From: Candidatus Heimdallarchaeum aukensis
GTDB taxonomy: Archaea > Asgardarchaeota > Heimdallarchaeia > Heimdallarchaeales > Heimdallarchaeaceae
Length of the DNA stretch: 64,000 nucleotides
Assembly (NCBI GenBank): GCA_021513695.1
Contig: CP084166.1
Span: forward strand, 128,001-192,000
Direction of reading: 5' to 3'
Position 1 is the stretch's first letter. The number at the start of each line of letters is the position of its first letter. The notes beneath the pieces are model-generated. The model did no database searches. It worked only from the letters and a program-made list of their open reading frames with translations, and was not told the origin of the DNA. Made by a program: the position numbers and the translations under genes. Positions 3,260-45,649 of this stretch are shown here, piece after piece.

Positions 3260-6200
3260 TTGCATATATTTATTAATGTCTGTTTAAAATTCACCTTTAT
3301 GAGTATAAAAAGCAAAAAAATTTTTTTGTCTTTTATTATTATTATGTTTATTACTTTAACAATAAATAGTGTAAAAGCTGAAGAGCAAGCAGCTCCTATT
3401 TTATATACGAAGTATTCTTCTTACACCAATATAGTTGAGTCAGTTTTTGACGAGAATAATCAAATGCATATTTTTCTCGGTCGTTCAGATGAATTTAATT
3501 ATAAAATCTTACATATCTTTAATGGAGAAGCGATACTCATTGATGCTGGTGTAAATAACATAGAAAGATTTTTCAAAGCAAAAATCTTCCCTGGAGGAGT
3601 TGCATTATTCTATTTAGATCACGATATTACAAAAGGAGATACATTATACTATTATTATTATTTCATAAATAACGGTTCACATGGCCTCAAGGTAATAACA
3701 AAATCAGGATTAGCATCTAATTATAAAATCAATATATTTCAGGATAACTCCAGATTTACAATTATTACTTCGTATAGTATTTCCTATTATACAAGTGCAA
3801 TAAAAAGCTTTAACTGCAGTTTTAGCGGAGAAATTTTAGACTCTGAAAGTTATGATGTTGAAGTCTCAATTTACAAGATAAAAGGATTCGTCTTTCAGAA
3901 TGAAAAAATATTCTTTTATTTTTACAAAGATGTTTATAACGCTAGTGCTTACCTCTCTTTTCTCTATGTTCAAGGGATAAACGAAAATGGACATATTTTC
4001 AATTCGAGCGTAATTGAATATCCTAATAGTTATTCAGAAACAATTATAACGCAAGGAATCAAAAAAGATTTTTATATCCAAACTATACAAGATGGTCAAA
4101 TTTTTTATTATTCTTTTAATGAAAATGAGACTTTTAGTTTCAGTGACTATAATTCTGCAGATTTTTATATTTACTATTATAACGAATATTCTATCGAGTA
4201 CACAGGTAATTGGATAAACACGACTTTCATAGAGTATGAATACATGTATTATAGTGACTTCTCTTATTCTTCAACTATTAACATTTTAGCTATCGTTACT
4301 TCATATAATTCAGAACAAATGTTGTTTGCAAAATTTGAAAAAACTATAACTTTTCAAGAAAGCTTTTTCCAATACTCAGTAGACATTGCTCTCGATGGTC
4401 CTTATTATTATATGTTTATTGCCACTAAAAGTACTGAAAAAATCCACTTTAATGAAACTGAAGTTTTAGGATTATATGTTCTCACAGATGATCCTAATTT
4501 TGTTCCACCTAAAGAACCAATATACTATGAAATCAAGCATATCTCCAATTTTACCTATTTCATGAAAAATTATTGGTGGACCCTTTTAATCGGTTTCGGT
4601 TTCATTGGTGGAATGTACGGTATTTTCCACAAGAGGATTAATAAGTCAATTCGCAAAATGAAAAAATTCCTGTTAAGACCTGTTGTGGACAATGTTTCTA
4701 CTGCTAAACTAATTTTAATCAACATTTGGCTATTTTTCTTTAATACTTATAGTTTAGTTCTTTCTTTGTGGAGAGTTAATAAAAAAAGACTAATAATAAA
4801 CATTCTTGGTCTTTCAATTCTTGCGTTTGTTCTGATAAACACTTCAGTACTTTATAATTCAGAACAGGCAACTGTTCTTCAGAAATATTTTGACAACCAT
4901 GACTTTGGTTCTAATTATGATACTTCTGTAGATTTTACAAAGACATTTATTGAACAATCAAAAACCGCTGAAAATATTTCCTTAATTAATGAAAATTATA
5001 CTTTATTAGCTGCAGAAGATATAATGAAATCTTTGAAACAAAAAGCTCCTACTTTAGCTTCCTTAATAGTTGATTATCAACTAACCAGTTTAATTACTAT
5101 CACAGGTTCAAACGTTACTTACGGAAATGAAGATATTCAATATTATTCAATAAACTCAAGCTATAATTTTGTTTTACAATCACTACTAGTTAATGGTACT
5201 TTGCCTAATAAAAAAGGAGAAGTAATTGTTTCTAGTAGTGTTGCTGAATATTATGACTTTCAAGTGGGTGAAGTAATACAATTTCAAGCAGTAAGCTATA
5301 AAGGTGCTTTCCTAAATTATGATGTAGTCAACCTAACTGTTTCTGGAATTTTTTCTAGTATTGGTTACAATACTTTGCGACAACTATGCGCAGATAATGA
5401 TCTACCATTTGATCCTGTTAGATATCTTACCTCTAACATGTTTTCAGCTATCGCTTTTAACAAATACTTCTTAAAAAATCTAGAAAATATCTCTTTAGGA
5501 CAACTAACCTTGTACGGAGATTTAGAGTTTATTTATGACTTTTCTTCGCTTGATCTAGAATCCTTTGAAAAACTAGTTGAAGAATATGAGTATTTAACTG
5601 AAAATCCTACTCAATACTTTAAATTTGATCCCAATGGTACCTGGTCATTAAGTTACGAGTTACGATATGTTATAATATATTTCCAATATGACCTAATAAT
5701 CATGCGGTTTTTAATCTATTTACTAACAATACCTATAGTCTTCTTAGCTTTATTTTTATTAAGTGAAGTTAACTCTATCTTTGCTTCAAGTTTTAAACAA
5801 GAGATAGAAATATTACAATCCCAAGGATTATCTGTTGGAAGAATAACTTTCATTTATTCTTCAATGAAATTCGGAGAGTCAGTTGTTGGAACAGTATTTG
5901 GACTTCTTGGAACATTTATATTTACACCAATTCTTTTAAAAGTTGATAAATTTCTACAATTTACGAACCCAATTTATCATTTTACTTTAAAGGGTAGCTT
6001 ATCTACAATTTTCATAACCTTTTTTGCTTTAATCATAGCTTCTCTCCCTCGAATTATTAGATTGGCAAAACAATCTGAAAAGAAACAAAAAGAACCAAGA
6101 AGATTTGTAACTCTAATAAAACGATTAAGAATACATTACTTTTTAGTCGTTATTTTTGGCGGAATTATTGCTTTCGGGGGATATTATTTAGCTGCTATTT

Positions 6201-7579
6201 TCACTTGGGTTTTTGAAGATTCATTTACTTCTCTCCTTGCTGTTTTTGTCAGCTTAATGGGAATAGGAGCTATGATTTCTATTTTCGGTATCGGATTAAT
6301 AATCAGAGAATTACATAATCTTCTCCTCATAATAGTCAGTAAATTGTCTTGGAAAGTTAAGAAATCTATAGGTTCCTTTTCATTAATTGAAGTTCGTTCT
6401 GATGCTAAGTTATTTACAAATACCTTTTTCTCATTTCTACTAATAATAGCTTTTGTAGTCCCTTCAATTATTGTTCCTTTGGCAATACAGGACCATTTCG
6501 TAAATATATCTTATTTCTCTTCTGGATCAGATGTTTATATTTCTAGCTGGTCTCTGTATAATGCTTCTAAGTCAAATATTACTTCTTACGATGAAGTAGT
6601 AAGTGTTGCTAATATTAGTGTTATAGAAACTACATATGGAGAACTCAACTTCCGTTTTCTAGTAATAGATAATTTAACAGAGTTCCGTTCTACAATATAC
6701 GATGTTCCAAAATACATAATGCCTGATTTTGATGAACTTCTATCCAAATTAGAACAAAATGATACTATGCTAGTAAGTAAGTTGTTTAACAAAGTTTTTC
6801 TTTCTCCTGAAACTTTTACCTTCACATCAGCTAATGAATCACTCAATAAAGAAATTCGAGTTGGAGGAGAGTTTACATACTTCCCTATCTTTTTCTTTGG
6901 CGATCGGTGGTTAAACGATAATTTTGAAATTTATTATTACGATTACATATGGTTTACTTTTCATATTGTCTTGACAAATCAAACTTTTACAGAAATCAAA
7001 GAAACTTTGAAAACACCTACTGTAGTTGTTGATAGACTCTTAATCAAACTTAAACCTAATTCTAATCCCATTAAATTTACTGAAAAAATTAAAAGAGATC
7101 TAAATATTGATTCAAGAAGTACGAAAGAACTAGCTGACTCAACTCTGTTTCAAGCCTATCCTTTCTATAGTGTTTTAACTTCGATGTTTGTTTATACAAT
7201 ACTAATGAGTATATTTGCAGTTGCTTTTATCAGTCTGAGTAATCCTTTGAAACTCTTGATACAGAAATCATCAAAGAATGACATTTTAAGAAAACTGGGT
7301 GTAAGGGTGAATAGAATTATTAACATATCTGCTTTTGAAATCTTTGTTTCAAGTTTTATACCTGGGATGATTCTTGGAGGACTTAGTGCCTACGGATTGT
7401 ATGTATTTTTCAAATACATTTTTATTGACTTTGGTTGGCGCGGTCTACCATACAAGAGTTACATGTTCTTCCCTGTTACTGGCGTTGTTATAGGCATATT
7501 TGGAGCATTATATTATGTCATCTTCTACTTCTCTATGAAGATGAATTTCTATAAATATAGACCTAGAAATTTGGAGTGA
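3260..7579 (+). CDS. single-chain FtsX/MacB-type ABC transporter permease with an N-terminal secreted domain of about 430 aa and two FtsX permease modules
   Basis: A probable true start at 3299 (MSIKSKKIFLSFIIIMFITLTINSVKAEE) gives a signal peptide. After the TM helix WWTLLIGFGFIGGMYGIF comes LWRVNKKRLIINILGLSILAFVLI, the typical start of a MacB/FtsX permease. Two 4-TM bundles follow, each preceded by a large extracytoplasmic domain. The stop overlaps the start of the downstream ATPase (7576), which suggests translational coupling. Confidence 0.6.
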   Translation: MHIFINVCLKFTFMSIKSKKIFLSFIIIMFITLTINSVKAEEQAAPILYTKYSSYTNIVESVFDENNQMHIFLGRSDEFNYKILHIFNGEAILIDAGVNNIERFFKAKIFPGGVALFYLDHDITKGDTLYYYYYFINNGSHGLKVITKSGLASNYKINIFQDNSRFTIITSYSISYYTSAIKSFNCSFSGEILDSESYDVEVSIYKIKGFVFQNEKIFFYFYKDVYNASAYLSFLYVQGINENGHIFNSSVIEYPNSYSETIITQGIKKDFYIQTIQDGQIFYYSFNENETFSFSDYNSADFYIYYYNEYSIEYTGNWINTTFIEYEYMYYSDFSYSSTINILAIVTSYNSEQMLFAKFEKTITFQESFFQYSVDIALDGPYYYMFIATKSTEKIHFNETEVLGLYVLTDDPNFVPPKEPIYYEIKHISNFTYFMKNYWWTLLIGFGFIGGMYGIFHKRINKSIRKMKKFLLRPVVDNVSTAKLILINIWLFFFNTYSLVLSLWRVNKKRLIINILGLSILAFVLINTSVLYNSEQATVLQKYFDNHDFGSNYDTSVDFTKTFIEQSKTAENISLINENYTLLAAEDIMKSLKQKAPTLASLIVDYQLTSLITITGSNVTYGNEDIQYYSINSSYNFVLQSLLVNGTLPNKKGEVIVSSSVAEYYDFQVGEVIQFQAVSYKGAFLNYDVVNLTVSGIFSSIGYNTLRQLCADNDLPFDPVRYLTSNMFSAIAFNKYFLKNLENISLGQLTLYGDLEFIYDFSSLDLESFEKLVEEYEYLTENPTQYFKFDPNGTWSLSYELRYVIIYFQYDLIIMRFLIYLLTIPIVFLALFLLSEVNSIFASSFKQEIEILQSQGLSVGRITFIYSSMKFGESVVGTVFGLLGTFIFTPILLKVDKFLQFTNPIYHFTLKGSLSTIFITFFALIIASLPRIIRLAKQSEKKQKEPRRFVTLIKRLRIHYFLVVIFGGIIAFGGYYLAAIFTWVFEDSFTSLLAVFVSLMGIGAMISIFGIGLIIRELHNLLLIIVSKLSWKVKKSIGSFSLIEVRSDAKLFTNTFFSFLLIIAFVVPSIIVPLAIQDHFVNISYFSSGSDVYISSWSLYNASKSNITSYDEVVSVANISVIETTYGELNFRFLVIDNLTEFRSTIYDVPKYIMPDFDELLSKLEQNDTMLVSKLFNKVFLSPETFTFTSANESLNKEIRVGGEFTYFPIFFFGDRWLNDNFEIYYYDYIWFTFHIVLTNQTFTEIKETLKTPTVVVDRLLIKLKPNSNPIKFTEKIKRDLNIDSRSTKELADSTLFQAYPFYSVLTSMFVYTILMSIFAVAFISLSNPLKLLIQKSSKNDILRKLGVRVNRIINISAFEIFVSSFIPGMILGGLSAYGLYVFFKYIFIDFGWRGLPYKSYMFFPVTGVVIGIFGALYYVIFYFSMKMNFYKYRPRNLE

Positions 7580-9333
7580 TAAAAGTGATACAAGCTGATG
7601 ATTTATTAAAAGTATATTATGACCCTATTACTGAATACAAAGTTGCTGCTTTAAGAGGGTTATCTCTTGATATTAAAGAAGGTCAGTTAGTTAGTATAAT
7701 AGGCCCTTCTGGTTCAGGTAAAACAACCTTAATTAACATTTTAGCCGGACTTGATGTTCCTACAGGTGGAAGAGTAATTGTTAAGGGTCAACAATTAGAT
7801 AAAATGACAGAAAGAGAAAGAAGAGAGTTTAGGTATTATAATATTGGTTTAATTAATCAGTTTATAAGCCAGAACTTGTTTCCAAGACTCACTGTAATAG
7901 AAAATCTGATGATACCTAAACGTATGTTTTGTCTTCCTCATGAAACAGCTAAAAAAGAAGTAGAAGAGTTACTCGAACTTTTGAGATTAAAGCATATAGC
8001 AAAGAATAATGTAGAAAAAATATCTGGAGGAGAAGCAATTCGGTTGTCTCTTGGAGTAGCCTTAGCAAAGAATCCTGATATTTTGTTGTGTGACGAACCT
8101 ACAGGTCAATTAGACAATATGCATACTAAAGAAGTAGTTGAAACTATTAAAGATGTAAATATTACCATGGGTAAAACAATACTTGTAGTTACCCACGATA
8201 TTCGCTTTAGGACTGTTTTTGAACGAAGTTTCATCATTCGTGATGGCCGTCTTGCTGGAATTAGTGTGGATATTAATAGGAATCAACTAGAATTTCTTAT
8301 GGAATCTTCTGAAATGAAGAGATCTTATGTAGACCCTTCTAATTTCGCTAGAATTCCAGATGAAATAAAACGCAGTTTAGGCATTAAAGACACTGTTGAA
8401 TATGATCTTCATCCTTCGAAAAAGATTGGTTTAATTTGGAATCCTGATTTGATAACTAGAGAAGATATTTTCCACATATTAAACAACCCAGAAGAAGAGT
8501 ATGAAGAGACAGTAGATCAAATAAGCTATGAAGATGTAGAACCTATTCTCTCTCGAAGTTTTGTACCTCCTGAAAAAGAAGAACCTATTATTAAAATAAG
8601 TAATTTGAAGAAAGGATATCCTTCTCCAGCTGGATATAATCTTGTACTAAAGGGTATTAACTTATCAATTAATAAAGGAGATTTTGTTTTTATTTCTGGT
8701 CCCAGTGGAGTAGGTAAGACTACGCTCTTTAATTGTATTTCAGGATTAGATAAGATTGATGATGGACATGTAGAAATAATGGGTTTTGATATCAAAAACC
8801 AACCAGAACCTCTTATTTCTGATTTTAGATTAAAGCACATATCTTATATCACTCAGCACAATAACCTTTTTGAACCGCTATTAGTTGAAGATAACCTTTT
8901 CTTACCTTATTTGTTTTTAGGAGAGAAGATAGATATAGATTATGCCAAAAAAATAATGAAAGAATGCTTTATTGATCATAAAATTAAGTCTTACCCTGAT
9001 GAACTTTCTGCAGGAGAAAAACAACGTGCAGCACTAGCTACTAGTTTGGCAAGGAAAACATCTATCCTTATTGCTGATGAACCCACTGCTAATCTTAATT
9101 CTGAACTTGCCCGTTCAATAATTAATCTTTTTATGGATATATCTAAGCTAGAGCAAAAAACAGTTATTATCTGTTCTCATGATTTGAGTTTATTACGTCC
9201 AGGATTTAGACATATTCGTCTATCAGATGGTCAGATAGCGGAAGATTATCGTGTAACAAAAGAGCAATTACAAGAGATTATTACAGAATACCTTAGCATT
9301 CAAAAGAACAAAAAAAATGAATCTATTACGTAA
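7576..9333 (+). CDS. ABC transporter ATP-binding protein with two tandem nucleotide-binding domains (MacB/LolD-like)
   Basis: NBD1: Walker A GPSGSGKTTL, signature ISGGEAIRLSLGVALA, Walker B ILLCDEPT. NBD2: Walker A GPSGVGKTTL, signature LSAGEKQRAALATSLA, Walker B ILIADEPT. Confidence 0.85.
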   Translation: MIKVIQADDLLKVYYDPITEYKVAALRGLSLDIKEGQLVSIIGPSGSGKTTLINILAGLDVPTGGRVIVKGQQLDKMTERERREFRYYNIGLINQFISQNLFPRLTVIENLMIPKRMFCLPHETAKKEVEELLELLRLKHIAKNNVEKISGGEAIRLSLGVALAKNPDILLCDEPTGQLDNMHTKEVVETIKDVNITMGKTILVVTHDIRFRTVFERSFIIRDGRLAGISVDINRNQLEFLMESSEMKRSYVDPSNFARIPDEIKRSLGIKDTVEYDLHPSKKIGLIWNPDLITREDIFHILNNPEEEYEETVDQISYEDVEPILSRSFVPPEKEEPIIKISNLKKGYPSPAGYNLVLKGINLSINKGDFVFISGPSGVGKTTLFNCISGLDKIDDGHVEIMGFDIKNQPEPLISDFRLKHISYITQHNNLFEPLLVEDNLFLPYLFLGEKIDIDYAKKIMKECFIDHKIKSYPDELSAGEKQRAALATSLARKTSILIADEPTANLNSELARSIINLFMDISKLEQKTVIICSHDLSLLRPGFRHIRLSDGQIAEDYRVTKEQLQEIITEYLSIQKNKKNESIT

Positions 9334-17112: not shown

Positions 17113-19200
17113 TTAAACACTCATTGTGAGGGTTTCATTAAATTGAGGGACAACTAGATCTTTGTGTTTAATAGTAATATTCTCTGGAGTATGAACCATT
17201 ATTTTCTTCCCATTAAGTTCTGAAATAAACTTATCCAAATTTCTAGGAGTAGTGTGTCCACTTATTTGTAGATTGTAAATTTGCTGAGAGTATTGATTTA
17301 AAGCTACAGGATGATTTGTTTTTAATGAGTAGCCTAAAGTTTCAGGGGCTTGATAACCACAGATTATTACTCCAACATCATCATTATCTCTTGTTTCATC
17401 TAAGAGCAATCTAGAGGTTCCTCCTTGAAGCATTCCATTTCCTGCAATTACAATATCTCCATCTTCAAATTCGTCAGCGTTCATACTTTTTAGTAATGTA
17501 TGATCTCCTGAAATACCCATTAATTTTGTTATTTCACTAGCTAACCCAACAATTTTTACATTGTGTTCTTTTGTTAAACGTAGTTTTTCTAAAAGTGTAT
17601 ACATTTCCTGTGCTCTTCCAACAGAAAAAGCTGGGATAATTACCTTTTTATTCTGTTTAACGGCATTTAAAACAGTTGTTTCATTATCAACCTTTTTTAG
17701 ATTTCTATTATAGTATGTTCCATCAAAAATGGTTACATCGGCATCGGTAGGAAATTCAGCTCCTTTGAAAAGATAACTTTTTTCTACTTTAAAATCTCCA
17801 GTAAACAAAATTCTCTTTCCGAATATTTCAATTAAATATCCATAACTTCCAAATACATGAGAAGAAGGAATAGGAGTAATTAAGAACTCAGGAGAAATCT
17901 CTATAGATTTTTTAGGTTTAAGTGGATTAAATCTATTAAAGAAATGAATTAATGTTGATTCACTTTTTATTGCTTTTAGGTATGGTGATAATAACTTTTC
18001 ATCAGGTATTCCTTTTAACATTGTTGAAGTGTTGAAAAGTAACTTTTCTCCTATTACTTTTGTATTTACACTTCCATACCATCTTTTTTCTTCATCAATA
18101 TTTACTAAATAAGGTAGAGCTCCAATATGATCTAAATGAGCATGGGTCACAAGTATTGCTTTCACAGTTCTCAAAGAAGGATGCCATCGAGGAATAGAAT
18201 AGTTGCTAACACTCATCCCATAATCTAGTAAAATGGCATCGTTATTATGTTGAATAAGTATAGCCATATTTCCAATTCCTCCACCACCTAAAAATGTAAT
18301 TCGTACTTTTTGGGCTAGTTTATGGCAAGAATAAGCTTTTTTCGAAGCAAATTCTTTAATTAACTTTGGAGGAGTATTTGCTAATTCTTCTAATTTTACT
18401 ATTCTAGGTTCTACTTTTTCTCTTATTTTCTCAAAGAATGGTTTGTATGTAATGGGGACAATTGGGTATTTACTTTTATTTAAAAGATTTTCAATCTTTT
18501 TTTGAACTTCTGGAATTGATGTTTTTTTATCCAGAGAAAGTTCTGAAATAATAAATTCACTATATCTTAAATCTAGTTCAGATAGTAGCTTATAATCTAT
18601 AAAAAAATCTAGAAATTCTAGCACTTCTGTAGGAAAATTTGGAATAAATTCTTCTAAATAGTTAGATTTTTCTTGTAATAGCTTAACCATTTTTTCTAAT
18701 TTTTCTGCTAATTCCTGAGTTTTTTGGTTGATGGTAAATGGTACGTTTAGTTTTTCTAAAATAGCGATGAATTCTGAAAAAGATCTAGGTTTTATACCCA
18801 TATCTCTACAAAAGTTTAGATACTGAAAGTAATCAATCTCTCTTTTTTTTACTTTCTTGGTTGAATAAATTAGAAAGAACAATATTATATTTTCATGTTT
18901 CAGACTATCTGTAAGCTGTAAATGTTGAAAAACCTCCTTTACAAGTTTAATATCGATTAAATCCTTTGCATACAAAGTAAATAAAACAGCAAGAAATTGT
19001 TCTCTTTGTTCTATGTCAATAGGTGTATTCCATGAAAGATTGAAGATATCTCCTATTGTTTTTGGGATTTCTTCAATTTCTCCTTTTTCTAGTATTCTAC
19101 TAAAATGTTTAACTTGCGTAATTAACTCTTCTTCTATTTGGGGTTCCTTTTCACCATTTAACAAAAATTCAATAATATTTTTTCCTGCTTGAATACTCAT
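17113..19200 (-). CDS. beta-CASP metallo-beta-lactamase ribonuclease (aCPSF/RNase J-like) with a novel N-terminal helical extension of about 300 aa
   Basis: HAHLDHIGALPYL is the MBL HxHxDH motif. IIPAFSVGRAQE is beta-CASP motif A. ISGHTTPRNL carries the motif C histidine. The N-terminal 300 aa have no KH or other recognisable domain. Confidence 0.6.
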   Translation of the reverse strand: MSIQAGKNIIEFLLNGEKEPQIEEELITQVKHFSRILEKGEIEEIPKTIGDIFNLSWNTPIDIEQREQFLAVLFTLYAKDLIDIKLVKEVFQHLQLTDSLKHENIILFFLIYSTKKVKKREIDYFQYLNFCRDMGIKPRSFSEFIAILEKLNVPFTINQKTQELAEKLEKMVKLLQEKSNYLEEFIPNFPTEVLEFLDFFIDYKLLSELDLRYSEFIISELSLDKKTSIPEVQKKIENLLNKSKYPIVPITYKPFFEKIREKVEPRIVKLEELANTPPKLIKEFASKKAYSCHKLAQKVRITFLGGGGIGNMAILIQHNNDAILLDYGMSVSNYSIPRWHPSLRTVKAILVTHAHLDHIGALPYLVNIDEEKRWYGSVNTKVIGEKLLFNTSTMLKGIPDEKLLSPYLKAIKSESTLIHFFNRFNPLKPKKSIEISPEFLITPIPSSHVFGSYGYLIEIFGKRILFTGDFKVEKSYLFKGAEFPTDADVTIFDGTYYNRNLKKVDNETTVLNAVKQNKKVIIPAFSVGRAQEMYTLLEKLRLTKEHNVKIVGLASEITKLMGISGDHTLLKSMNADEFEDGDIVIAGNGMLQGGTSRLLLDETRDNDDVGVIICGYQAPETLGYSLKTNHPVALNQYSQQIYNLQISGHTTPRNLDKFISELNGKKIMVHTPENITIKHKDLVVPQFNETLTMSV

Positions 19201-19291: not shown

Positions 19292-20254
19292 TCATTTTTC
19301 TTCTTCATCATCATTTAACAAGCTACTGAAGGCTGCTCTTAATTCATTTTGAAGTGATTCTTTCATTTGCTTTGTAGATTTTTTAGGAGTAGCTGGTGTA
19401 GGCTCTGATACTGGGCTTACTTCATCTGATTCTTCCATTCGTTGAGATCTTCTTTGTTGAGCAGCTTTAACTTCTGAAAGTAAAGCTTGTTGTGGAGAAA
19501 GAGGTCTTGATGCTTGTGCAGCTTGTTCTCTCTCTTTTTTATGAGCATCAGGATCAACTTTCTTTAATTTTGCTTTTGCTTCCAGAATTGCTGAAGCTGT
19601 TGGTCCACCTAATGGTCCCACACCTCCCCCACCCATAGGTCCTGGGCCAGGAGCTGGTGATTGTTGCACTGGAGCTTTTTGTAATTTTGCTTTTGCTTCC
19701 AGAATTGCTGAAGCTGTTGGTCCACCTAATGGTCCCACACCTCCCCCACCCATAGGTCCTGGGCTAGGTGCTGGTGATTGTTGCACTGGAGCTTTTTGTA
19801 AAGATTTGGCAGCATTAGCTATCTCGCTAGCAAATCCTGGAGAACCTGGCCCTGCTCCTAGATTAGGAGCTGGTGCAGGAGCTCCACTTAAATTTGGTGT
19901 TGGAGCTGGTCCCCCTAGATTAGGCGCAGAAGTCGCTCCACCCCCTATATTTGGCGCTGGAGCTGGTCCAGAACTCAATTTAGGTGCAGAAGGTATCGAG
20001 GGACTTGGAGTACTTCCACCTATACTTGGAGCACTAGGCATTCCCATTCCTCCTCCAGGTGCTCCACCTAATTTATTCTCCAAAGCTGTTATTCGCGCAT
20101 CTAATTCGTTAATAGCATCTTCAATTCTTTCTGTAGATTTGATCATAATACTTCCAAAGTTTTCAAGAAGTCTAGTTAATTTTGCAATCGCAGTTTTCGT
20201 AGGGGAAGAACCTTCAGATAATAAATTGTCTAGGTACTCATCAATTGACATCAA
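19292..20254 (-). CDS. low-complexity Pro/Gly/Ala-rich protein with an N-terminal coiled coil and two 39-aa repeats
   Basis: After an N-terminal helix there is a long PAPAP/GGP tract. Two repeats follow: AKAKLQKAPVQQSPAP..GPMGGGGVGPLGGPTASAILE. The C-terminal tail is acidic. Confidence 0.45.
   Translation of the reverse strand: MMSIDEYLDNLLSEGSSPTKTAIAKLTRLLENFGSIMIKSTERIEDAINELDARITALENKLGGAPGGGMGMPSAPSIGGSTPSPSIPSAPKLSSGPAPAPNIGGGATSAPNLGGPAPTPNLSGAPAPAPNLGAGPGSPGFASEIANAAKSLQKAPVQQSPAPSPGPMGGGGVGPLGGPTASAILEAKAKLQKAPVQQSPAPGPGPMGGGGVGPLGGPTASAILEAKAKLKKVDPDAHKKEREQAAQASRPLSPQQALLSEVKAAQQRRSQRMEESDEVSPVSEPTPATPKKSTKQMKESLQNELRAAFSSLLNDDEEEK
19566..19799 (+). repeat. 117-bp direct repeat, 2 units, inside the Pro/Gly-rich gene
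   Basis: aattttgcttttgcttccagaattgctgaagctgttggtccacctaatggtcccacacctcccccacccataggtcctggg... occurs twice in tandem, with 2-3 mismatches near the 3' end of the unit. Confidence 0.85.
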
Positions 20255-20335
20255 ATATCAAAATATACTAGACTGAAAACTATAAAAAGACTTTGTTAAT
20301 GCATAATGAAAAAGAAAAATTAATTGTTCTTGAAA

Positions 20336-21425: not shown

Positions 21426-22961
21426 CTAAAGGAATTTAGGTGGTTCAGGGATATTATCTAAATATTTAAGGAAAGGTTCTGGCCATTCGTCAGTTTTTAA
21501 GCCTTTTTGAGAAACAAAGGCAGTAATAAATCGTTCAAAACTTCCTCCTCCACAGCCTGACCAAAGATCTTTTCCTCCTTCAGTTTTTACACTAAATCCT
21601 CTTGGATATTTGTCTCCTATAATAGAAATATTCTGGATTTCTAACCACTCACTTTCTTCTCTAGAACCTCTATAAGGCATATAAGTTTCGAAGTCAATTG
21701 TACCAACAAGCATGTCTTCTTCCTCTTCATCTTTTGCAGATTGTTCAAGCCACCAAGGCATAACTTTTGCTTCTCGGACTTCTAAATCAAAAATTCTGTC
21801 AAAAACTTCTCTTAATTTCTTTCTTGTTTCAGTTGCTACCTCTTTTACTTGTTTTGGAGTGCCAATAAACAATGTTTCAATTCTATGTAATTCATCTACT
21901 CTTTCAAAACCATAAGCAGAGCCAGATTCATATCTATATGTTGGTCCACTCCAATCATAAACTAGTATAGGTAAGCTCTCTTTAGCAATTGTTTTTCCTT
22001 GAAGCCAAGCCCAGAAAGGAGGACATTGAGCATAAGACAATCCTCCTATTGGAGGAGTGATTTTTTCATATAGTTTGTCTTCAGGAATTGTTTTTGTTAT
22101 TGTTATATAATCAGCTATTTCTTCAAAAAATTCAGGGTTTGCACTTTTAGGTTGAACAACAAAGTACGGTTCAAACCCTCCTTGAAACATTCCTTCTGCA
22201 TGACCAGAGCGTAGCCAAATTGACCAGTCCACAAGCTTTGGTATCATCATTTTCTGATAGTTTAGAGGAGTATATACATGTTCAACCATTATCTTCTTTA
22301 TTGCTTCAATAACTGCTGTAATGGAAGGAGTTAAAATCCATTGATTTCTATAATTTGTTCTTTTAATCCATCCTTCTTTTTCAAGAAGTTTTGTTGGATT
22401 TTTGGAAGTAAGAAGTTTCTTTTCACCTGAATACCAAGCAACTGTATGGTGTTCTTTTTTAGCTCCATGATAATCTTTAGATATTTTATCATTGATTCTT
22501 CTTAATATCCGTTCTATTGCTCCTTTTTCAACAAAATCTTCTTCTATTTCAGGGTCTATCTCAATTCTTGCCCAAGGTTCATCCTCTTTTTTGAAAAACT
22601 CAAGCTTTGATGTTAAAGGTAAAGTAAATTCTCTTTTAGGTTCAAGTTTAAGTTTTTTCTCTATCTCATATTTGATAAATTTAAAACCTCTTAGACCAAT
22701 TTTGTATTTTTTGCCAATTTCTTGTGCTAATTGTTTGCGCATGCGTAAAACTATAGTGTGAGGAGCATATGAGTCAACTGAATTAAGAGAAAGTACAATC
22801 TTCTTATCCTTTATTTCAGAAAGTTCAATAGTGAATTTTCCTTTTGGACGTTTAGAATTTAAATCTTGTTCATATTTTGAAATAAACTGTGTTAAATGTT
22901 CTATACTCTCTTTAGGTAATTCTCCGCTTGTGATAAAATATAGTTCTAAAGTTTGTTTCAT
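21426..22961 (-). CDS. atypical class II aminoacyl-tRNA synthetase-like protein (methanogen-type SerRS / amino acid:carrier-protein ligase-like)
   Basis: Motif 2-like YRYESGSAYGFERVDELHRIE and motif 3-like SGCGGGSFERFITAFV are present. The N-terminal domain of about 170 aa is unrelated to bacterial-type SerRS. Specificity is unknown. Confidence 0.4.
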   Translation of the reverse strand: MKQTLELYFITSGELPKESIEHLTQFISKYEQDLNSKRPKGKFTIELSEIKDKKIVLSLNSVDSYAPHTIVLRMRKQLAQEIGKKYKIGLRGFKFIKYEIEKKLKLEPKREFTLPLTSKLEFFKKEDEPWARIEIDPEIEEDFVEKGAIERILRRINDKISKDYHGAKKEHHTVAWYSGEKKLLTSKNPTKLLEKEGWIKRTNYRNQWILTPSITAVIEAIKKIMVEHVYTPLNYQKMMIPKLVDWSIWLRSGHAEGMFQGGFEPYFVVQPKSANPEFFEEIADYITITKTIPEDKLYEKITPPIGGLSYAQCPPFWAWLQGKTIAKESLPILVYDWSGPTYRYESGSAYGFERVDELHRIETLFIGTPKQVKEVATETRKKLREVFDRIFDLEVREAKVMPWWLEQSAKDEEEEDMLVGTIDFETYMPYRGSREESEWLEIQNISIIGDKYPRGFSVKTEGGKDLWSGCGGGSFERFITAFVSQKGLKTDEWPEPFLKYLDNIPEPPKFL

Positions 22962-23031: not shown

Positions 23032-24774
23032 TTATTTGTCATTGATTTTTACTTGTAAGAAATACTCAATTATTTCTTTCAAATCTTTCTTTGTTATACG
23101 TTTATCTGACTGAATTCCACCTTTTTCTAAGACTATGTGTCTCATTCCTGGTCTTAACAAACTAAGATCATGCGAGCAAATAATTACTGTTGTTTGTAAT
23201 TTTTCTGCAACATCCATTAATACATCAATTATGGCTCTTGCCAAATCACTATCTAAATTAGCTGTTGGTTCATCTCCTATTAGAATAGGCGTTTTTCTTG
23301 TTAATGCAAGTGATAAGGAAGCTCGTTGTTTTTCTCCAGCAGAAAGTTCATCAGGATAAGCTTCTAACTTATGTTTTATTTGACATTCCTCAACCATATT
23401 TAGAGAGTACTCTTCATCATAGTCTAATTTAGAAAACAGATAAGGGACAAGAAGATTATCTTTAACTGTAACAGGTTCAAAGAGGTTATTATGCTGAGTG
23501 ATATAAGCAATGTTCTTTAATCTAAACATTGATGTTTCATATTCATCTTTATCATGAAGTGAAACATTATTGATAATTATTTCTCCTTTATCTGCTTTTA
23601 CAAGTCCTGTAATGCAATTAAAAAGGGTAGTTTTTCCTACTCCACTGGGCCCAGTAATCATTACGAAATCTCCTTTTTTAACTTCTAAGTTAATGTTTTT
23701 TATTACTTGATTATAACCTGCTGGAGAATGATATCCTTTGGAAACTCCTTTTAATTGCAAAATATTTTCTCTACTCTCTATGAAGTTGAATTTTCTGCTA
23801 ATAATTTTTTCAATTTCTTCATAAGAAATTTCTCGAGATTCTTTAATCGCTTCGTCAACTGGTTTATTCAAAATCTTGTATATTTCTTCTCTATTTACTA
23901 TATCAGGATTCCAAAATAAACCAAGAGATCCAGCAGGATGAGCGTCAAATTCTACTACATCATAAAGCTTTGTTTTCATCTTTATTTGATCAGGTATTCT
24001 AAGAAGGCTATTTTTATCTAAGTAAGCCCGATTATTTGTAGAAGAACTTGTCATAAATTCAAGTTTATCTTTTTCCATATCTTGACTTACTCCTACTAAT
24101 CTCCCATCTCTAATGATAAAGCTATGTTTGAATACATTTCTAAAGCGGATATCGTGAGTCACAACAACAATAGTTTTACCCGTGTTCTCGTTAATATCTT
24201 TTATAGTATTAATTACTTCTTTAGTATGCTCAGTATCTAATTGACCTGTAGGCTCGTCAAGAAGTAGAAATTTAGGATTTTTAGCTAAGGCTGCACCTAA
24301 AGATAAACGCATAGCCTCTCCACCAGAAATGCGAGAAACGAGATTATTTCGCACATGATATAAGTTTAACAGTTCTAAAATTTCCTTGACTTCTCTTCTG
24401 GCTTGCTCTCTTGGAATGTAAAATAATTTTTTGTGTATCATAAGATTCTTTTCAACAGAGAGATTTGAGAATAAGTTATCGCTAATATTTTGATTGATCA
24501 ACCCAATGTATCTGAATCTGAACTCTCTTAGTTGTTTTTGAGACATTTTTTCTAAATGATGGTTGTCAATAATGACTGATCCTCCAGTAATATCTTCTAA
24601 GCCAGATAAAATCTTGATTAATGTGGTTTTTCCTGCTCCAGAAGGACCAACTATACTTACAAGATCACCTTTTTCTACATATAAATCTAATCCTCTTAAA
24701 GCAGCAACTTTATAATCAGAATGAGGGTCGAAATAAATTTTAAATAAATCAATACATTGTATCATTTTTATCAC
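23032..24774 (-). CDS. ABC transporter ATP-binding protein with two tandem NBDs (diverged paralog of 7576..9333)
   Basis: Walker A GPSGAGKTTL and GPSGVGKTTL; signatures ISGGEAMRLSLGAALA and LSAGEKQRASLSLALT. The domain order matches the first copy. Confidence 0.85.
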   Translation of the reverse strand: MIKMIQCIDLFKIYFDPHSDYKVAALRGLDLYVEKGDLVSIVGPSGAGKTTLIKILSGLEDITGGSVIIDNHHLEKMSQKQLREFRFRYIGLINQNISDNLFSNLSVEKNLMIHKKLFYIPREQARREVKEILELLNLYHVRNNLVSRISGGEAMRLSLGAALAKNPKFLLLDEPTGQLDTEHTKEVINTIKDINENTGKTIVVVTHDIRFRNVFKHSFIIRDGRLVGVSQDMEKDKLEFMTSSSTNNRAYLDKNSLLRIPDQIKMKTKLYDVVEFDAHPAGSLGLFWNPDIVNREEIYKILNKPVDEAIKESREISYEEIEKIISRKFNFIESRENILQLKGVSKGYHSPAGYNQVIKNINLEVKKGDFVMITGPSGVGKTTLFNCITGLVKADKGEIIINNVSLHDKDEYETSMFRLKNIAYITQHNNLFEPVTVKDNLLVPYLFSKLDYDEEYSLNMVEECQIKHKLEAYPDELSAGEKQRASLSLALTRKTPILIGDEPTANLDSDLARAIIDVLMDVAEKLQTTVIICSHDLSLLRPGMRHIVLEKGGIQSDKRITKKDLKEIIEYFLQVKINDK

Positions 24775-27700
24775 TCCAAATTCATAGGTTGATATCTAGC
24801 AAATTGCATTTTCATTGTCATGTAGAATATAGAGAAAAACATAACAGGAATAACTAGAAAAATTATCACCGCAATAACTGGTGGAAACTGAATAGGATTA
24901 GGCAATATCTCTTGCCTTAGGCTTCTTAACACTCTTCGTATAATTTCAGTTATTGTAAAACCTACTGCTGTACCACTGATTATTCCAGGAAGAATTCCAA
25001 TCATGAATAATTCAAAGGAACTCATTTGAATTATAAGTTTGTTAGGTATACCCATCTTCTTAAGAATGTCATGCTTACCCATTCTTCTTTGCAATATCTT
25101 AAGAGGATTACTCATACTTGTAAATACAATAGAGATTATGCAAATTAATAATGAAAAAACAAATATTGAAACTATCGAAGCATAAAAGGGAAGATTGGTA
25201 CGGTAAATTTCTTGTTCTTCTTCAACTATGTTAATGATTTCTAGATTGTATTTCTCTTCTAAACTTGAAGAAAATTGAACTATATCCGTTTTTTCTTCAA
25301 CATTTATTAATAATCTATAACCAAATACTCCAAAAACGGTTAAACTCTCTTCTATTTTCTCATAATTGCTCTCTGTTAGAACAATCATAGGAGTTCCTCC
25401 CGATTCTCGTGGACCATAAGGATAGATTATGGGGAAATAGTCAAACTCATCTATTATCTTCACTTCTACGTCATCGAATGAGTATTTCATTTCGCTAATA
25501 TCAAAGAAAAACTTGAAGTTGCTAGAAACAATTATCTCTTTATCGTTATCCAGTTGAGGAATAATATCATCCCAATTTTTGTAAAATCTTTCTGAAGGTT
25601 TATACGCTGTATTATAGAAATCCGAAGCTTTTTGAATCACTAAAAGATTTAACTGTCTTCCTCCAAACATTGCGTCAACTTGAGAAACGTTACATATGCC
25701 GATTACTTCGGGAAGAATTTTAATTTCATCACTGATACTGGAATTAACGTTATTGTAATTGCTTATATACATATCAGCTCCTGCCATAAAGTAAGAATCT
25801 TTTATTATCCCATTCTGCATTGTTAGAGGAGCAGCTATTGCAGGAACAGCAATTCCTACCAAAAGTAAATAGGTCAAGAAAATATCATTAAACAATGAAA
25901 GATCTGTTTTTACTTCAACTAATGAGAAAGTGAATATATTCTTCTTAATTTTCCACAAAGTTTTGCTTAAAACTGCCATAATAAAAGAGTGAAGATCTTT
26001 TAAAATTAGTCCTAAACCGAATAAAGATATCATTACTCCAATTCCAATAATATACACGAAAATGTTTATCAATTGGTTATCTGAAGAAGAAAGATTTTCG
26101 CTGAAAGTTAGATATAGTTTTAGTCCTCCGTAAATTATTCCTCCTCCAACAGCAATAATAATGAAGTTGCCGATTTTCACCTTTTTAAGAAAAGAAACAA
26201 ATTTGTTATAATCTCTTATTTGCTCCTTCTTTATTTTTGCCATTCTTATTGTTAAAGGTAAAGTAATAATTATTAAACCAAAGAACGAAATTGTGAAAAT
26301 TAAAGGAAGATTCTTTAACGAAGGCATTGTAGAACTTAGATTGAAAGAGACAAATCTATCTAATTTTAATAAAATGGGAATAATCAGTATTGCTTCTCCT
26401 AAACCTAAAAAGGTTGCAATAAGTGATTCTACAAATTTCATTACTGTGTTCAGATAAACTATTTTTCCAGTTGACAACCCTTTGGAACGGAGAATTTTAA
26501 TTTCTTCATCAAAACTTGTAGCAAATAAGGCATTTGTTTCAAAAATCAAGAATAGTGCAAGGTAAAGGACAGGTATTGATAATAAAACAATTAGAAATTG
26601 AGTAGAGGAATAGGAAGGAACTAAACTTTGCAATACTAGTTTTAATTCAGTTGAAATAACCCAAGAACCACCTAAATCAAATTTTACAGGATGATCGTAA
26701 CTTGGTTGTAAAATGTCAAAATCATTTATTAGTTTTCCAATATTTTTAGAATTAACTAAAGAAAAATCATAGAAAAATTGAACTATACCATCAAATTTCA
26801 GATGTTGAACTGGCATAGTTTTTAAACTTGACAGATAAAAATCATTGAAAGTTATTGCACCGATGTATTGTGAAATCATTTCTATGAGATCATATGATAA
26901 TCCATAATCTCTACTCATCTTAAATAATGAAGGTTCTGTTGGTTTTTCGTAAATCCCTACAATAGTCATGTTCACTCTTTCTTTTAAACCTCCAACAGAG
27001 ACATCTGCACCAACAAAGACAATAGTGTCGTTTATTGTTTTATTGAAAGCTGTCGCTGTAGTTTGATCGATTATAACTTCATTGATTTTATCAGGTAACC
27101 TACCTGAAACTAGAATTCTTCCCAAAATATCCTTATAATTAGTAGATAAGGAATAATATGATTCTACGCTCTGAACTGTACTCTCAGTATCCTTCTTAAA
27201 TAGAATTCGCATTTGCATTGAATAATCAGAATCAATAATTATATCCTTCAAAACTTCAGTTTTAAAAGCGATAGTTGAAAGAATCTCGTTCATAACAGCA
27301 GAAGAAAAATTCTCGTAAAAAGGTGAGTATTCATTTACTCTCCCCCATCTCGCGGAAAGAACATTATGCATTCTCGAAAACGTAGCTGAAGCTTTTTCAT
27401 CTTCTTCTAAATGAGCATCTTCTAAATATTGTTGTATCATCATGTTTTGTTTATATGAAAAGAGTGAAGAAGAAGAGAAAACAATCATTGCCAAAATTGA
27501 TAAGCCTAGTATTGTTATTATAGCTCTCTTTTTGTTTGATCTCCATAAATCGAAAGGAAGACTCAATGAACTTACAATAAAAACCCATAGATTGAGAAAT
27601 ACTAAAACAAATTTACTTTTTCCAGTTTTTATAGGTCTAAATAAAAACCTAAATAGTTTTTTTCCTTGATTTACTATTTTTTTGTAAAATATGGCTATAA

Positions 27701-29195
27701 ATAGTAAGAGAATTGAGATAGCTATTGTAAATTCAATCCAATGTATTCTAAAAACATATTGAAAGAAGTTTACTAAAGTTAGATCGTAAATAACAGGTCT
27801 TATAATACTGTTGAAAGATAAATTACTATTTGAATAAATTAAAACAGAAAAGACATTAGGTTCTACTATAACTTTGTTTTCTAGTTGAGTATCATGAAAT
27901 CTCTGTGTTCTACTAACTAAAAAAGTAGTAGGAGATTGAAAATTGATATGAGTCGAGTCGAAAACCGTAATGTTTGAAGTGAAAGGAATATCAATAAATT
28001 GTTGAGTAATATTTTTTCCATTATATCTTAAAATAGTAAATTCAGTAATTAAATCAGCCTTAGAATTACTTGAATTAAGAGGTAAGTGGGGATTAGGGTT
28101 GATTAAGAATGTTATTGACGAATCAAAAGAGTAGTGATACAAGTCATCATATGAATACATTCCCAATTGAAATTCACTAAAGTTTTCAAAAGAAAGACTT
28201 TCGTTCAATTTAAAATTATGAGTATAGAATGTTGATCCTTTAATTAGAGCCAAGTTTAGTGTAGTTTGATTAAATACCGATAAATAAACATCATAATCAG
28301 TATTGAAAAGAAGATAGTTACTTAAATAAGGGTCATCGTTTATGATATATATTCCAACTAGCCTTGTTGGGAAAAACATATACTTGTACAATGCAACTAA
28401 TTTTCCATCAACAAGTAGCAATGTTTGAATGCCATTATATTCTAAATCTGTAAACCAATTTTCAGTGCTTGAAGTTCCATTTAGAAAAACTGTTAATTTT
28501 TTAAATTTAGTCTTTGGGTGCTCATCCATTGCCGATTCAAACATTGGTTCTGCAAACAGCAAATAGAAAGAGTTTTCTATAAACTGAACATTATAGATAA
28601 AATAATTTCCAAAAAAACTTGAATGGTAAATCAAGAAATTACTTTTGTTTTGTTCTGATTCCCAAACATACATTTCAATATTGAATTGCCCAAAGTTTCC
28701 ATGATATGAATAGAACAATACTATTTTGTTATCAATTCTAAAGGTGTCAAAAATTGTTCCTGGACTTAAATCTGTTTTAATCTTTGATATATTTCCTTCA
28801 AACAAATGAAAGATAGTGAAGGATTGATTTTCTAATTCCATTTTTATGAATAAGTGTAATCTTTCTTGAGTGTCTAACACCGCTCTTGTTTCTAAATCTA
28901 CTATTGTTTCATAAGCTTGAAAATAACCTATAACCTCTTCTTTAACTTCTGGATTTTCAGTTATATCAGCACTTATTAGCAAAGAATTATAATTTAAACT
29001 TAATATAGACGCTATTAAAATAAACACGAAATATTTTTTTTCCATACCAATCTCCCATCGGATATGCCTTTTTTTGAACACTTTAAAATTTTCCTCTGTA
29101 AAAATATTTTTTAAATGAATAAATACTTCAAGAAAAGAATTTATATATTGCAAGTTCTTGTTAAGCAAAATGTCCTCAAAAACCTCTAAAGACAC
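24771..29195 (-). CDS. single-chain FtsX/MacB-type permease (diverged paralog of 3260..7579)
   Basis: Same architecture as the first copy. The probable true start is at 29045 (MEKKYFVFILIASILSLNYNSLLISADI, a signal peptide). The ORF-track start at 29195 overlaps the divergent MFS gene. DLWRSNKKRAIITILGLSILAMIVF is the FtsX N-terminal motif. Confidence 0.6.
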   Translation of the reverse strand: MSLEVFEDILLNKNLQYINSFLEVFIHLKNIFTEENFKVFKKRHIRWEIGMEKKYFVFILIASILSLNYNSLLISADITENPEVKEEVIGYFQAYETIVDLETRAVLDTQERLHLFIKMELENQSFTIFHLFEGNISKIKTDLSPGTIFDTFRIDNKIVLFYSYHGNFGQFNIEMYVWESEQNKSNFLIYHSSFFGNYFIYNVQFIENSFYLLFAEPMFESAMDEHPKTKFKKLTVFLNGTSSTENWFTDLEYNGIQTLLLVDGKLVALYKYMFFPTRLVGIYIINDDPYLSNYLLFNTDYDVYLSVFNQTTLNLALIKGSTFYTHNFKLNESLSFENFSEFQLGMYSYDDLYHYSFDSSITFLINPNPHLPLNSSNSKADLITEFTILRYNGKNITQQFIDIPFTSNITVFDSTHINFQSPTTFLVSRTQRFHDTQLENKVIVEPNVFSVLIYSNSNLSFNSIIRPVIYDLTLVNFFQYVFRIHWIEFTIAISILLLFIAIFYKKIVNQGKKLFRFLFRPIKTGKSKFVLVFLNLWVFIVSSLSLPFDLWRSNKKRAIITILGLSILAMIVFSSSSLFSYKQNMMIQQYLEDAHLEEDEKASATFSRMHNVLSARWGRVNEYSPFYENFSSAVMNEILSTIAFKTEVLKDIIIDSDYSMQMRILFKKDTESTVQSVESYYSLSTNYKDILGRILVSGRLPDKINEVIIDQTTATAFNKTINDTIVFVGADVSVGGLKERVNMTIVGIYEKPTEPSLFKMSRDYGLSYDLIEMISQYIGAITFNDFYLSSLKTMPVQHLKFDGIVQFFYDFSLVNSKNIGKLINDFDILQPSYDHPVKFDLGGSWVISTELKLVLQSLVPSYSSTQFLIVLLSIPVLYLALFLIFETNALFATSFDEEIKILRSKGLSTGKIVYLNTVMKFVESLIATFLGLGEAILIIPILLKLDRFVSFNLSSTMPSLKNLPLIFTISFFGLIIITLPLTIRMAKIKKEQIRDYNKFVSFLKKVKIGNFIIIAVGGGIIYGGLKLYLTFSENLSSSDNQLINIFVYIIGIGVMISLFGLGLILKDLHSFIMAVLSKTLWKIKKNIFTFSLVEVKTDLSLFNDIFLTYLLLVGIAVPAIAAPLTMQNGIIKDSYFMAGADMYISNYNNVNSSISDEIKILPEVIGICNVSQVDAMFGGRQLNLLVIQKASDFYNTAYKPSERFYKNWDDIIPQLDNDKEIIVSSNFKFFFDISEMKYSFDDVEVKIIDEFDYFPIIYPYGPRESGGTPMIVLTESNYEKIEESLTVFGVFGYRLLINVEEKTDIVQFSSSLEEKYNLEIINIVEEEQEIYRTNLPFYASIVSIFVFSLLICIISIVFTSMSNPLKILQRRMGKHDILKKMGIPNKLIIQMSSFELFMIGILPGIISGTAVGFTITEIIRRVLRSLRQEILPNPIQFPPVIAVIIFLVIPVMFFSIFYMTMKMQFARYQPMNLE

Positions 29196-42174: not shown

Positions 42175-42301
42175 TAGATTTACTTATTTTTCTTTATTTT
42201 TAGACTTTATCTTTATTGAAATTTTTTTTGATTAAATTTACTATAAAATTAACAAAGGAAAACAATAGATTAAAATATTTAAAAAATTAAAATATACTGA
42301 T

Positions 42302-43417: not shown

Positions 43418-43569
43418 GCTTCTTTAAAATTCTGAAAATTGCCAAAAAAATTTTTCTAAAACAATTTTTTATTATTTATTAATTTTCGTAATACCTTGCT
43501 AATACTAAATCCTTCACGACAAAAACATATTTATTTCTGTTTACAATTGTGATATAGTAGATATCTAAG

Positions 43570-43779
43570 ATGGAATATGGGGTTAATATGAAAAAAAAGC
43601 TGATTACATTTAAAGTAACAGAAGCTATGATGAAATGGATAGCAGAAATGATGGAAAAGGGGAATTATAAAAATAGAACAGAATTAATTGTAGATGCTCT
43701 TAGAGAGTTTCTCATCCAAGAAAGAATGGTTGAAGATCAGGAAGAACTAGAAGCAATTTTTGAAAGAATTGATGAATAG
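43570..43779 (+). CDS. ribbon-helix-helix (CopG-like) DNA-binding protein
   Basis: 69 aa. KLITFKVTEAMMKWI is a beta-strand followed by two helices (NRTELIVDALREFL), the typical RHH layout. Confidence 0.45.
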   Translation: MEYGVNMKKKLITFKVTEAMMKWIAEMMEKGNYKNRTELIVDALREFLIQERMVEDQEELEAIFERIDE

Positions 43780-43821
43780 TTCTCTTATAACTCCTTCTGT
43801 ATTTCTGTTATTTTAGCCCTA

Positions 43822-45524: not shown

Positions 45525-45649
45525 TAGATTTACTTATTTTCTTTATTTTTAGACTTTATCTTTATTGAAATTTTTTTGATTAAATTTACTATAAAATTAA
45601 CAAAGGAAAACAATAGATTAAAATATTTAAAAAATTAAAATATACTGAT

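Follow-up and report, generated by a model that had tools for sequence, protein, structure and literature searches.

Complete Heimdallarchaeum genomes are reported to carry genes for actin, profilin and gelsolin (PMC8813620). The actin regulators described in Asgard archaea belong to two classes only, the profilins and the proteins of the gelsolin/cofilin type, and the latter contain an internal WH2-like LKKT motif (PMC7444086, PMC9433394, PMC8410842, 10.1101/2025.11.30.690169). In the two-domain Asgard gelsolins this LKKT-type motif reads LRRV, LKHV or LVDV/LKDV, and it shows that L-basic-basic-V strands contact actin in Asgard regulators (PMC9433394, PMC7444086, 10.1101/2025.11.30.690169). 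It is the sole WH2-like element so far described in Asgard archaea. No complete Arp2/3 complex has been reported in Asgards, which have actin-related proteins (ARPs) of unknown function and, in some Heimdallarchaeota, a possible distant ARPC4 (PMC7444086). In the literature searchable here, we found no stand-alone WH2-, VASP- or WASP-like Asgard protein and no archaeal homolog of CCDC53 or BRK1, a result that does not prove their absence. Here we analyzed a minus-strand gene (19292..20254) in a 64,000-nucleotide stretch of the Candidatus Heimdallarchaeum aukensis genome (contig CP084166.1, positions 128,001 to 192,000), which we call the window. The original prediction, made from the letters of this stretch, had proposed that the gene could encode a VASP/WASP-like factor of an archaeon with eukaryote-like proteins. 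The host is an Asgard archaeon of Heimdallarchaeaceae, and actin, profilin and gelsolin have been reported for complete genomes of its genus (PMC8813620). The gene is genuine and selectively maintained, and it encodes a modular disordered protein. The most specific explanation consistent with the anatomy of this protein is that it may be an oligomeric, mostly disordered actin-monomer-binding assembly factor specific to Heimdallarchaeia, to which we assign a probability of about 35%.

More than 80 homologs of the protein were found, all of them in Heimdallarchaeia: they come from Heimdallarchaeaceae and, as distant relatives, from Kariarchaeaceae. The members are 264–340 aa long. Those with a named source come from metagenome-assembled genomes (MAGs) of Candidatus Heimdallarchaeaceae or Heimdallarchaeota. 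The family is annotated solely as 'hypothetical protein', and we found no publication describing the family. The search with the full-length query was swamped by low-complexity candidates and gave 4 matches. With the Pro/Gly/Ala tract removed from the profile, 72 proteins of 264–314 aa were recovered, and a metagenome scan added seven further members. A scan of one genome per GTDB species gave 24 loci, all in Heimdallarchaeota, including AB_125 and the complete genome of Candidatus Heimdallarchaeum endolithica PR6, whose DNA is ~85% identical to that of the window over 20 kb. When 1.84 billion cluster representatives were scanned exhaustively with HMMER, 14 matches were returned at E ≤ 1e-3. 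All of these were family members or their fragments, together with three distant relatives: P0074 (452 aa, Candidatus Kariarchaeaceae), P0075 and P0078 (unassigned metagenome contig). Although the sequences are only 37–50% identical overall, the polar residues KSTER.ED, L.K, KER and KSTKQMKE are invariant by position. In the Kariarchaeaceae relative, the coiled coil, the basic helix (SEIMGVLSRRRDRKEEE) and the LKxAFS helices are all still present.

The family alignment and an AlphaFold2 model agree on one modular plan, which is common to the family: a coiled coil, PNL-type repeats, two to three short helices ending in L-x-K-[V/A/I], a basic amphipathic helix, an acidic run and a C-terminal helix. 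The model has a mean pLDDT of 59.7 and a pTM of 0.24, and 147 of its 320 residues have a pLDDT below 50. It shows a long N-terminal helix at residues 18–63 (pLDDT ~90), disorder at residues 64–139 and short helices lying exactly on the L-x-K motifs. The conservation of a module was taken as the mean column conservation in an alignment of 28–62 non-identical members, with the residues numbered as in the window protein; all the modules and motifs described below are on the minus strand. The N-terminal helical module (residues 4–63; 20066..20245; conservation 0.84) consists of a short helix and a 46-residue heptad helix with the invariant polar core KSTER.ED, and it is presumed to be an oligomerization coiled coil. 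It is followed by a disordered tract rich in Pro, Gly, Ala and Ser (residues 64–139; 19838..20065), whose conservation is 0.43 and whose P-[NS]-[LI] units are PSI, PSI, PNI, PNL, PNL and PNL. The family consensus of this tract is GAPNLSAAPS, in one to five copies, and in the distant locus L035 it takes the form (GGPNLG)n. At this locus (L035 1-981), P0078 is broken by a scaffold gap with a frame change. When read through, it contains the coiled coil and (GGPNLG)n, then three E[DG]AIKxALSSLK[KS]V motifs and an acidic stretch, and it closes with the helix LQEKLKAAFK at its C-terminus. The PNL repeat has therefore been kept even between distantly related members.

The next module carries three L-x-K motifs, at residues 140–157, 180–196 and 219–235. 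The first, GFASEIANAAKSLQKAPV (19784..19837), is an amphipathic helix followed by LQKAP; its family consensus is GISSADLMKAAANLQKAPE, and as helix-L-x-K-[V/A] the same residues can be written FASEIANAAKSLQKAPV. The second, TASAILEAKAKLQKAPV (19667..19717), is a hybrid made by a 117-bp duplication. The third, TASAILEAKAKLKKVDP (19550..19600; family consensus VSATDIQDVRSGLTKVDP; conservation 0.78), is the most WH2-like element, with 6.9 bits against a eukaryotic WH2 hidden Markov model (HMM). Beyond the motifs lies a charged helix that follows LKKV, DAHKKEREQAAQA (residues 236–248; 19511..19549), with the family consensus DEHRKER (DPDEHRKER) and a conservation of 0.80. The basic amphipathic helix, QQALLSEVKAAQQRRSQRMEES (residues 254–276; 19427..19495), has the family consensus MALNLEVKDALAKRKSR and a conservation of 0.79. 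It is followed by an acidic and Pro-containing linker (residues 277–290; 19385..19426; conservation 0.58), whose acidic run ends in Phe-x-Pro in most members, as in DEGEDAEFEP. The last module, KKSTKQMKESLQNELRAAFSSLLNDDEEEK (residues 291–320; 19295..19384), consists of the C-terminal helix and an acidic tail, reads KSTKQMKE.LQ.ELR.AFSSLL and is the best conserved of all (0.91).

Using Tandem Repeats Finder, we confirmed the duplication at 19558..19801 (minus strand; 2.1 copies). The two full copies (19568-19684 and 19685-19801) are identical except for 2 of their 117 bases and encode two 39-aa repeats that end in ASAILEAKAKLQKAPV and ASAILEAKAKLKKVDP. The duplicated stretch extends from the end of motif 1 as far as the motif 2 helix, and in this way a third, hybrid motif has arisen. 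It was also found in Ca. H. endolithica PR6 and in the fragment P0077, and not in P0001, which is 93% identical. Its presence in the complete PR6 genome and in P0077 rules out an assembly artefact as its source. Both PR6 copies carry a one-codon insertion missing from both window copies (window 19568-19801 compared with L004 10001-10939); the window copies are 98% identical to each other, and the two species differ by ~15%. This pattern in the sequences points to concerted evolution or to independent duplication at the same site. Two proteins from near-identical MAGs, P0002 (197 aa) and P0077 (106 aa), are cut short or shifted in frame within the 117-bp repeat (AKAQFWKQKQN; LKIIKKRENKL...), probably because of assembly or gene-calling errors caused by the repeat. 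In the family, L and K of the L-x-K-[V/A/I] motif are invariant. Exactly two motifs are present in 62 of the 66 full-length members and three in 4 of them, and the window protein is the most WH2-like member of the family.

Much of what had been predicted for the architecture has therefore held. The N-terminal coiled coil is seen in AlphaFold2 as the long helix at residues 18–63 with a heptad pattern, and the 117-bp duplication with its two 39-aa repeats is real. The helix-LKKV/LQKA motifs are also present, with the helix predicted for them, but there are three of them and not two. Three further conserved modules downstream of the motifs had been missed. The suggestion that the protein may equally be plain low-complexity sequence was ruled out: the family is conserved, and its helical motifs (0.78–0.91) are far better conserved than the linker (0.43).

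How could such a protein act on actin? We infer oligomerization, actin binding and each of the following steps. The N-terminal coiled coil would link several chains. The flexible Pro/Gly/Ala tract with its PNL repeats would be a spacer to which a partner such as profilin-actin might also dock. Each of the two to three short amphipathic helices ending in L-x-K-[V/A] would bind one actin monomer in a WH2-like manner, and the basic helix and the acidic patch may touch the filament or an actin-related protein. By raising the local concentration of monomers, a multivalent tether of this kind would favor nucleation or barbed-end elongation, following the logic of Ena/VASP, WASP-family and tandem-WH2 nucleators. 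Several features of the family favor such a factor. The order of its modules (coiled coil, Pro-rich tract, helix-LKKV, basic helix, acidic run with an aromatic residue) parallels that of the Pro-rich-V-C-A and EVH2 regions, and the number of motifs shifts by tandem duplication, as in eukaryotic WH2 arrays; in P0078, three LK[KS]V motifs lie behind the coiled coil and the (GGPNLG)n repeats. Also on this side are the conservation of the family and its helical motifs, the invariant L and K, the helices that AlphaFold2 places on the motifs, the hhalign alignments of the basic helix and the weak Myo1_CA match given below, the CCDC53 match of the N-terminus, and the actin, profilin and gelsolin genes of the lineage.

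In Ena/VASP a proline-rich region precedes EVH2, which comprises a WH2-like motif for G-actin, a basic helix for F-actin and a tetramerizing coiled coil. The likeness to Ena/VASP begins with a Pro-rich spacer followed by helix-L[KR]KV (GLAAAIAGAKLRKV in VASP, TASAILEAKAKLKKV in the window protein). A basic amphipathic helix comes next in both (GLMEEMNAMLARRRKA in VASP, ALNLEVKDALAKRKSR in the family, as aligned by hhalign), and both have an oligomerizing coiled coil, which is predicted here, and the same multivalent-tether logic. In contrast to Ena/VASP, the window protein has neither an EVH1 domain nor GPPPPP profilin sites, its main coiled coil is N-terminal and not C-terminal, and the similarity has P = 0.12. 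By inspection, the modules of the family stand in the same order as those of the WASP-family proteins, above all WAVE and WASH, in which an N-terminal helix forms a coiled-coil bundle with BRK1 or CCDC53: after a helical assembly domain and a Pro-rich tract come one to three helix-LxKV motifs, then a basic 'C-like' helix and an acidic run that contains an aromatic residue. For WASH the likeness extends to the N-terminus, whose top Pfam match is CCDC53, a subunit of the WASH complex. The differences are that the acidic region of the family has Phe (none in the window protein) in place of the conserved Trp, that ~35 more residues with a conserved helix follow the acidic region, and that the WH2 spacing and hydrophobic pair are non-canonical; for the C region, P = 0.036. 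The tandem-WH2 nucleators (Spire, Cordon-bleu, the bacterial VopL/VopF and TARP) resemble the family in their tandem short motifs, short linkers, Pro-rich stretch, oligomerization element and duplication-driven copy number. Their motifs match WH2 profiles, whereas those of the family do not, and actin binding is putative here. In the Asgard gelsolins the WH2-like motif is a linker between folded gelsolin domains, while in the window protein the motif is free-standing in a disordered protein without a gelsolin domain.

A number of results weigh against an actin factor. The Pfam WH2 (PF02205) and thymosin profiles matched neither the window protein (E ≤ 10), nor 28 members (E ≤ 1), nor 10 isolated motif peptides (E ≤ 10). 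A custom WH2 HMM was built from 15 eukaryotic motifs, and 310 open reading frames (ORFs) were used as the background. It turned out that the family median was −2.8 bits, and that the best motif of the window, SAILEAKAKLKKVD, scored 6.9 bits when the best background ORF scored 6.2. The motifs lack the canonical LLxxI hydrophobic pair and have small residues instead. Their hydrophobic positions lie at −12, −7 and −4/−3, compared with −10, −9 and −6 in canonical WH2. What we take to be the ELM-style regular expression for WH2 matches no motif, as the upstream hydrophobic pair is missing, and it serves as a lead only. The LKKV variant is in the minority: LQKA occurs 61 times in the family, LTKV 47 times and LKKV 23 times. 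In the Kariarchaeaceae relative the first L-x-K motif is degenerate (GLKAP) and the second is missing. The Pro/Gly/Ala tract contains no polyproline; PPP is absent from the window protein and occurs in 1 of 66 family members. Test sequences of WAVE1, N-WASP, VASP-GAB and BRK1 were verified against chains of the Protein Data Bank (PDB). The basic helix was aligned independently by hhalign to the C region of WASP (GLVGALMHVMQKRSRAI; P = 0.036 for VCA) and to the F-actin-binding motif of VASP (GLMEEMNAMLARRRK; P = 0.12 for EVH2), and neither alignment is significant. The acidic linker of the window protein has no Phe or any other aromatic residue. Among the HMMER matches from 1.84 billion representatives there was no eukaryotic homolog. 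The neighboring genes (threonine aldolase, beta-CASP nuclease and seryl-tRNA synthetase, SerRS) have no cytoskeletal link, and the neighborhoods in three genomes give no functional clue.

Other profiles were also compared. WH1 (EVH1) and VASP_tetra gave no Pfam match for any member. The N-terminus is a coiled coil. A search of NCBIfam gave no match. Myo1_CA, an Arp2/3-activating profile, matched the basic-acidic-Phe stretch weakly in 1 of 28 members (E = 0.27). In the acidic region of the family, Phe is the usual residue, with Leu or Ile in a few members and not the Trp of the WASP type; no aromatic residue is found at this place in the window protein, P0001, P0053 or L028. The original prediction thus fared unevenly in its central point. 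The VASP/WASP likeness gained the module order, the basic helix, the acidic run with Phe and the CCDC53 match, none of which it had named, but no match to a WH2, thymosin, VASP or WASP profile is significant. The repeats, compared there with WH2, did not score against WH2 profiles. The 'PAPAP/GGP' tracts, described as profilin-binding-like, do not have the runs of prolines seen in known profilin ligands. The LKKV signature is kept in homologs as far as L and K are concerned, which are invariant in the 66 full-length members, but not in the Kariarchaeaceae relative. No statistical test shows the protein to be a factor of the VASP/WASP type. It remains a candidate, well worth taking to experiment, rather than an established result. 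Homology with the eukaryotic factors is unproven, and the likeness may come from common descent or from convergence.

We also assessed the N-terminal module, for which Pfam CCDC53/WASHC3 (PF10152) is the top match. Against a gathering cut-off of 24.6 bits, the window protein falls short with 20.9 bits (E = 5e-4) and P0001 passes with 26.9 bits. CCDC53 is the top family match in 7 of 28 members (E < 1); the others score 12–17 bits. In hhalign the N-terminus scores 18.4 against human BRK1 (P = 0.005), while 100 shuffles gave a mean of 10.3 and a maximum of 17.6, and it scores 18.1 against a provisional CCDC53 sequence. The coiled coils of influenza B HA2, VP35 and tropomyosin, picked as top PDB matches, score 26–28, above both BRK1 and CCDC53, which is a further point against an actin factor. 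A profile search of the PDB returned generic coiled coils only, trimeric ones included, and did not recover BRK1. It is improbable that the family is an archaeal relative or even the direct forerunner of the WASP/WAVE/WASH class, in which a BRK1/CCDC53-type helix, a proline-rich spacer and a primitive V-C-A would be joined in one polypeptide that acts on Heimdallarchaeal actin and Asgard ARPs.

The same coiled coil may belong to a scaffold subunit of an assembly other than actin. In this case a partner, which might be a small GTPase or a protein of trafficking or division, would recognize the helices and the PNL repeats as short linear motifs, and the eukaryotic parallels would be small coiled-coil subunits such as BLOC-1/BORC, or BRK1/CCDC53 as pure assembly cores. 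We regard this as a doubtful explanation that still deserves attention. The best-conserved parts of the family are the N-terminal coiled coil and the C-terminal helix, ahead of the L-x-K motifs. The lack of matches to actin-related profiles and the coiled coil, which resembles generic trimeric coiled coils as much as BRK1 or more, favor it as well. So does the Kariarchaeaceae relative, which keeps the coiled coil and the 'LKxAFS' helices but has a degenerate first L-x-K motif and no second one. However, neither the gene context nor the profile matches suggest a partner, and the helix-LxK-[V/A] repeats, the basic helix and the acidic run would then stand in the VCA/EVH2 order by coincidence.

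It is rather unlikely that the protein is a low-complexity structural or condensate-forming protein without a specific ligand, whose helices merely tune self-association. Such a protein would agree with the 147 of 320 residues at pLDDT below 50, with a composition that is 49% Ala, Pro, Gly and Ser and with the varying repeat number, but polar residues that are invariant by position at 37–50% overall identity argue for specific contacts. We hold a little lower still the possibility of an adaptor linked to ESCRT, in which the helices would act as MIM-like elements for Vps4-type MIT domains and PSAP would dock a TSG101/Vps23-like UEV domain. By eye, motif 1 (ADLMKAAANLQK) shares the D, L, N-L and K/R positions with MIM1 helices. 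The PSAP tetrapeptide is found at residues 73 and 88 of the window protein and several times in the Kariarchaeaceae relative, and Asgard genomes have ESCRT components (PMC8813620). However, PSAP is not conserved in the family, which conserves APNL[ST] as its unit and in many members has PSGAP in place of PSAP; the key Arg-Leu pair of MIM1 is missing from both motifs, and no profile supports this assignment. The MIM1 and PSAP readings were set aside, as their support is no better than that of WH2. Finally, we give hardly any weight to a co-transcribed accessory or regulatory partner of the adjacent beta-CASP/metallo-beta-lactamase nuclease in RNA processing: the order threonine aldolase, gene, nuclease is kept in the window, L001 and L002 and basic helices could bind nucleic acid, but this synteny is lost in the Kariarchaeaceae and L035 relatives, the remaining neighbors have unrelated housekeeping roles, the gene has a TATA-like box ahead of it, and no RNA-binding domain was detected.

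The ORF at 19292-20254 encodes 320 aa counted from TTG, plus the stop codon. The gene opens with TTG-ATG. The second of these codons, the ATG at 20251, agrees with the 'MSIDDY' start of the homologs and is the likely true start. A candidate archaeal TATA box, TTTTTATA (20281..20288, minus strand), lies 29 nt upstream of the ATG. Judging from sequence alone, this box would give the gene its own leaderless or short-leader transcript. Within the 64 kb, the nine 300-bp segments with the highest GC content are all located in the gene, in line with the original prediction, and reach 0.52 compared with ~0.30 elsewhere. The GC3 of the gene is 0.162 and that of its neighbors is 0.166–0.183, whereas GC1 and GC2 are raised (0.59 and 0.56). 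The high GC content is therefore a by-product of the Gly, Pro and Ala codons. Horizontal transfer or foreign origin was ruled out, because GC3 equals that of the neighboring genes. A shadow ORF on the plus strand (19806-20276) is an antisense artefact of the GC-rich tract.

The threonine aldolase gene, the gene studied here and the beta-CASP nuclease gene lie on one strand with gaps of ~80–130 bp, and this order is confined to closely related Heimdallarchaeaceae. The downstream neighbor (17113-19200, minus strand) encodes a beta-CASP/metallo-beta-lactamase nuclease of 695 aa, for which Pfam gave no match in the first ~300 residues. This nuclease has only partial matches, to aCPSF1 (135 bits, cut-off 580) and to Cas14 of type VII CRISPR (126 bits, cut-off 800). 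At 21426-22961 (minus strand) there is a seryl-tRNA synthetase with a tRNA_bind_4 N-terminal domain, which we take to be that of the rare methanogen-type SerRS. No tRNA genes were found in the whole 64 kb. Two paralogous pairs lie at 3260-9333 (plus strand) and 23032-29195 (minus strand). In each, a giant ORF (1439 and 1474 aa) overlaps a double-ABC ATPase (585 and 580 aa) by 4 bp. Such pairs also adjoin the gene in other Heimdallarchaeaceae, and the counterparts of the giant ORF in L001 and L002 have no Pfam family on record. Ten other ORFs of the window whose size resembles that of actin, profilin or gelsolin were scanned against Pfam, and no cytoskeletal gene was among them.

Elsewhere in the window, a tandem direct duplication of ~3.35 kb with 99.9% identity occupies 41280-47750 (copies 41280-44400+ and 44630-47748). 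It contributes two identical 371-aa ORFs with HEAT repeats (42302-43417 and 45650-46765), and either a recent segmental duplication or a collapse or expansion in the assembly could account for it. A 155-aa ORF at 56788-57255 (plus strand) has a Cas12f1-like TNB domain (a TnpB-type fragment) and may be the remnant of an IS200/IS605-type element. The block around it, 56001-57000, is the second GC-richest part of the window (0.38).

Heimdallarchaeia are the Asgard class from which eukaryotes are thought to have branched. The family bears on the origin of the WH2-, VASP- and WASP-type machinery and on how Asgard cells nucleate or elongate actin filaments at defined sites. If the protein does not bind actin, it would still be a conserved lineage-specific scaffold. 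If the family were the forerunner of the WASP/WAVE/WASH class, regulated actin nucleation would predate eukaryotes, and the small coiled-coil subunits and nucleation-promoting factors (NPFs) of eukaryotes could stem from the fission of such a gene. If the proposed actin binding is true, the family would be a third class of Asgard regulators, and multivalent WH2-type assembly factors would predate eukaryogenesis. Should the mechanism hold, the closest archaeal relatives of eukaryotes would have an actin-assembly factor of their own.

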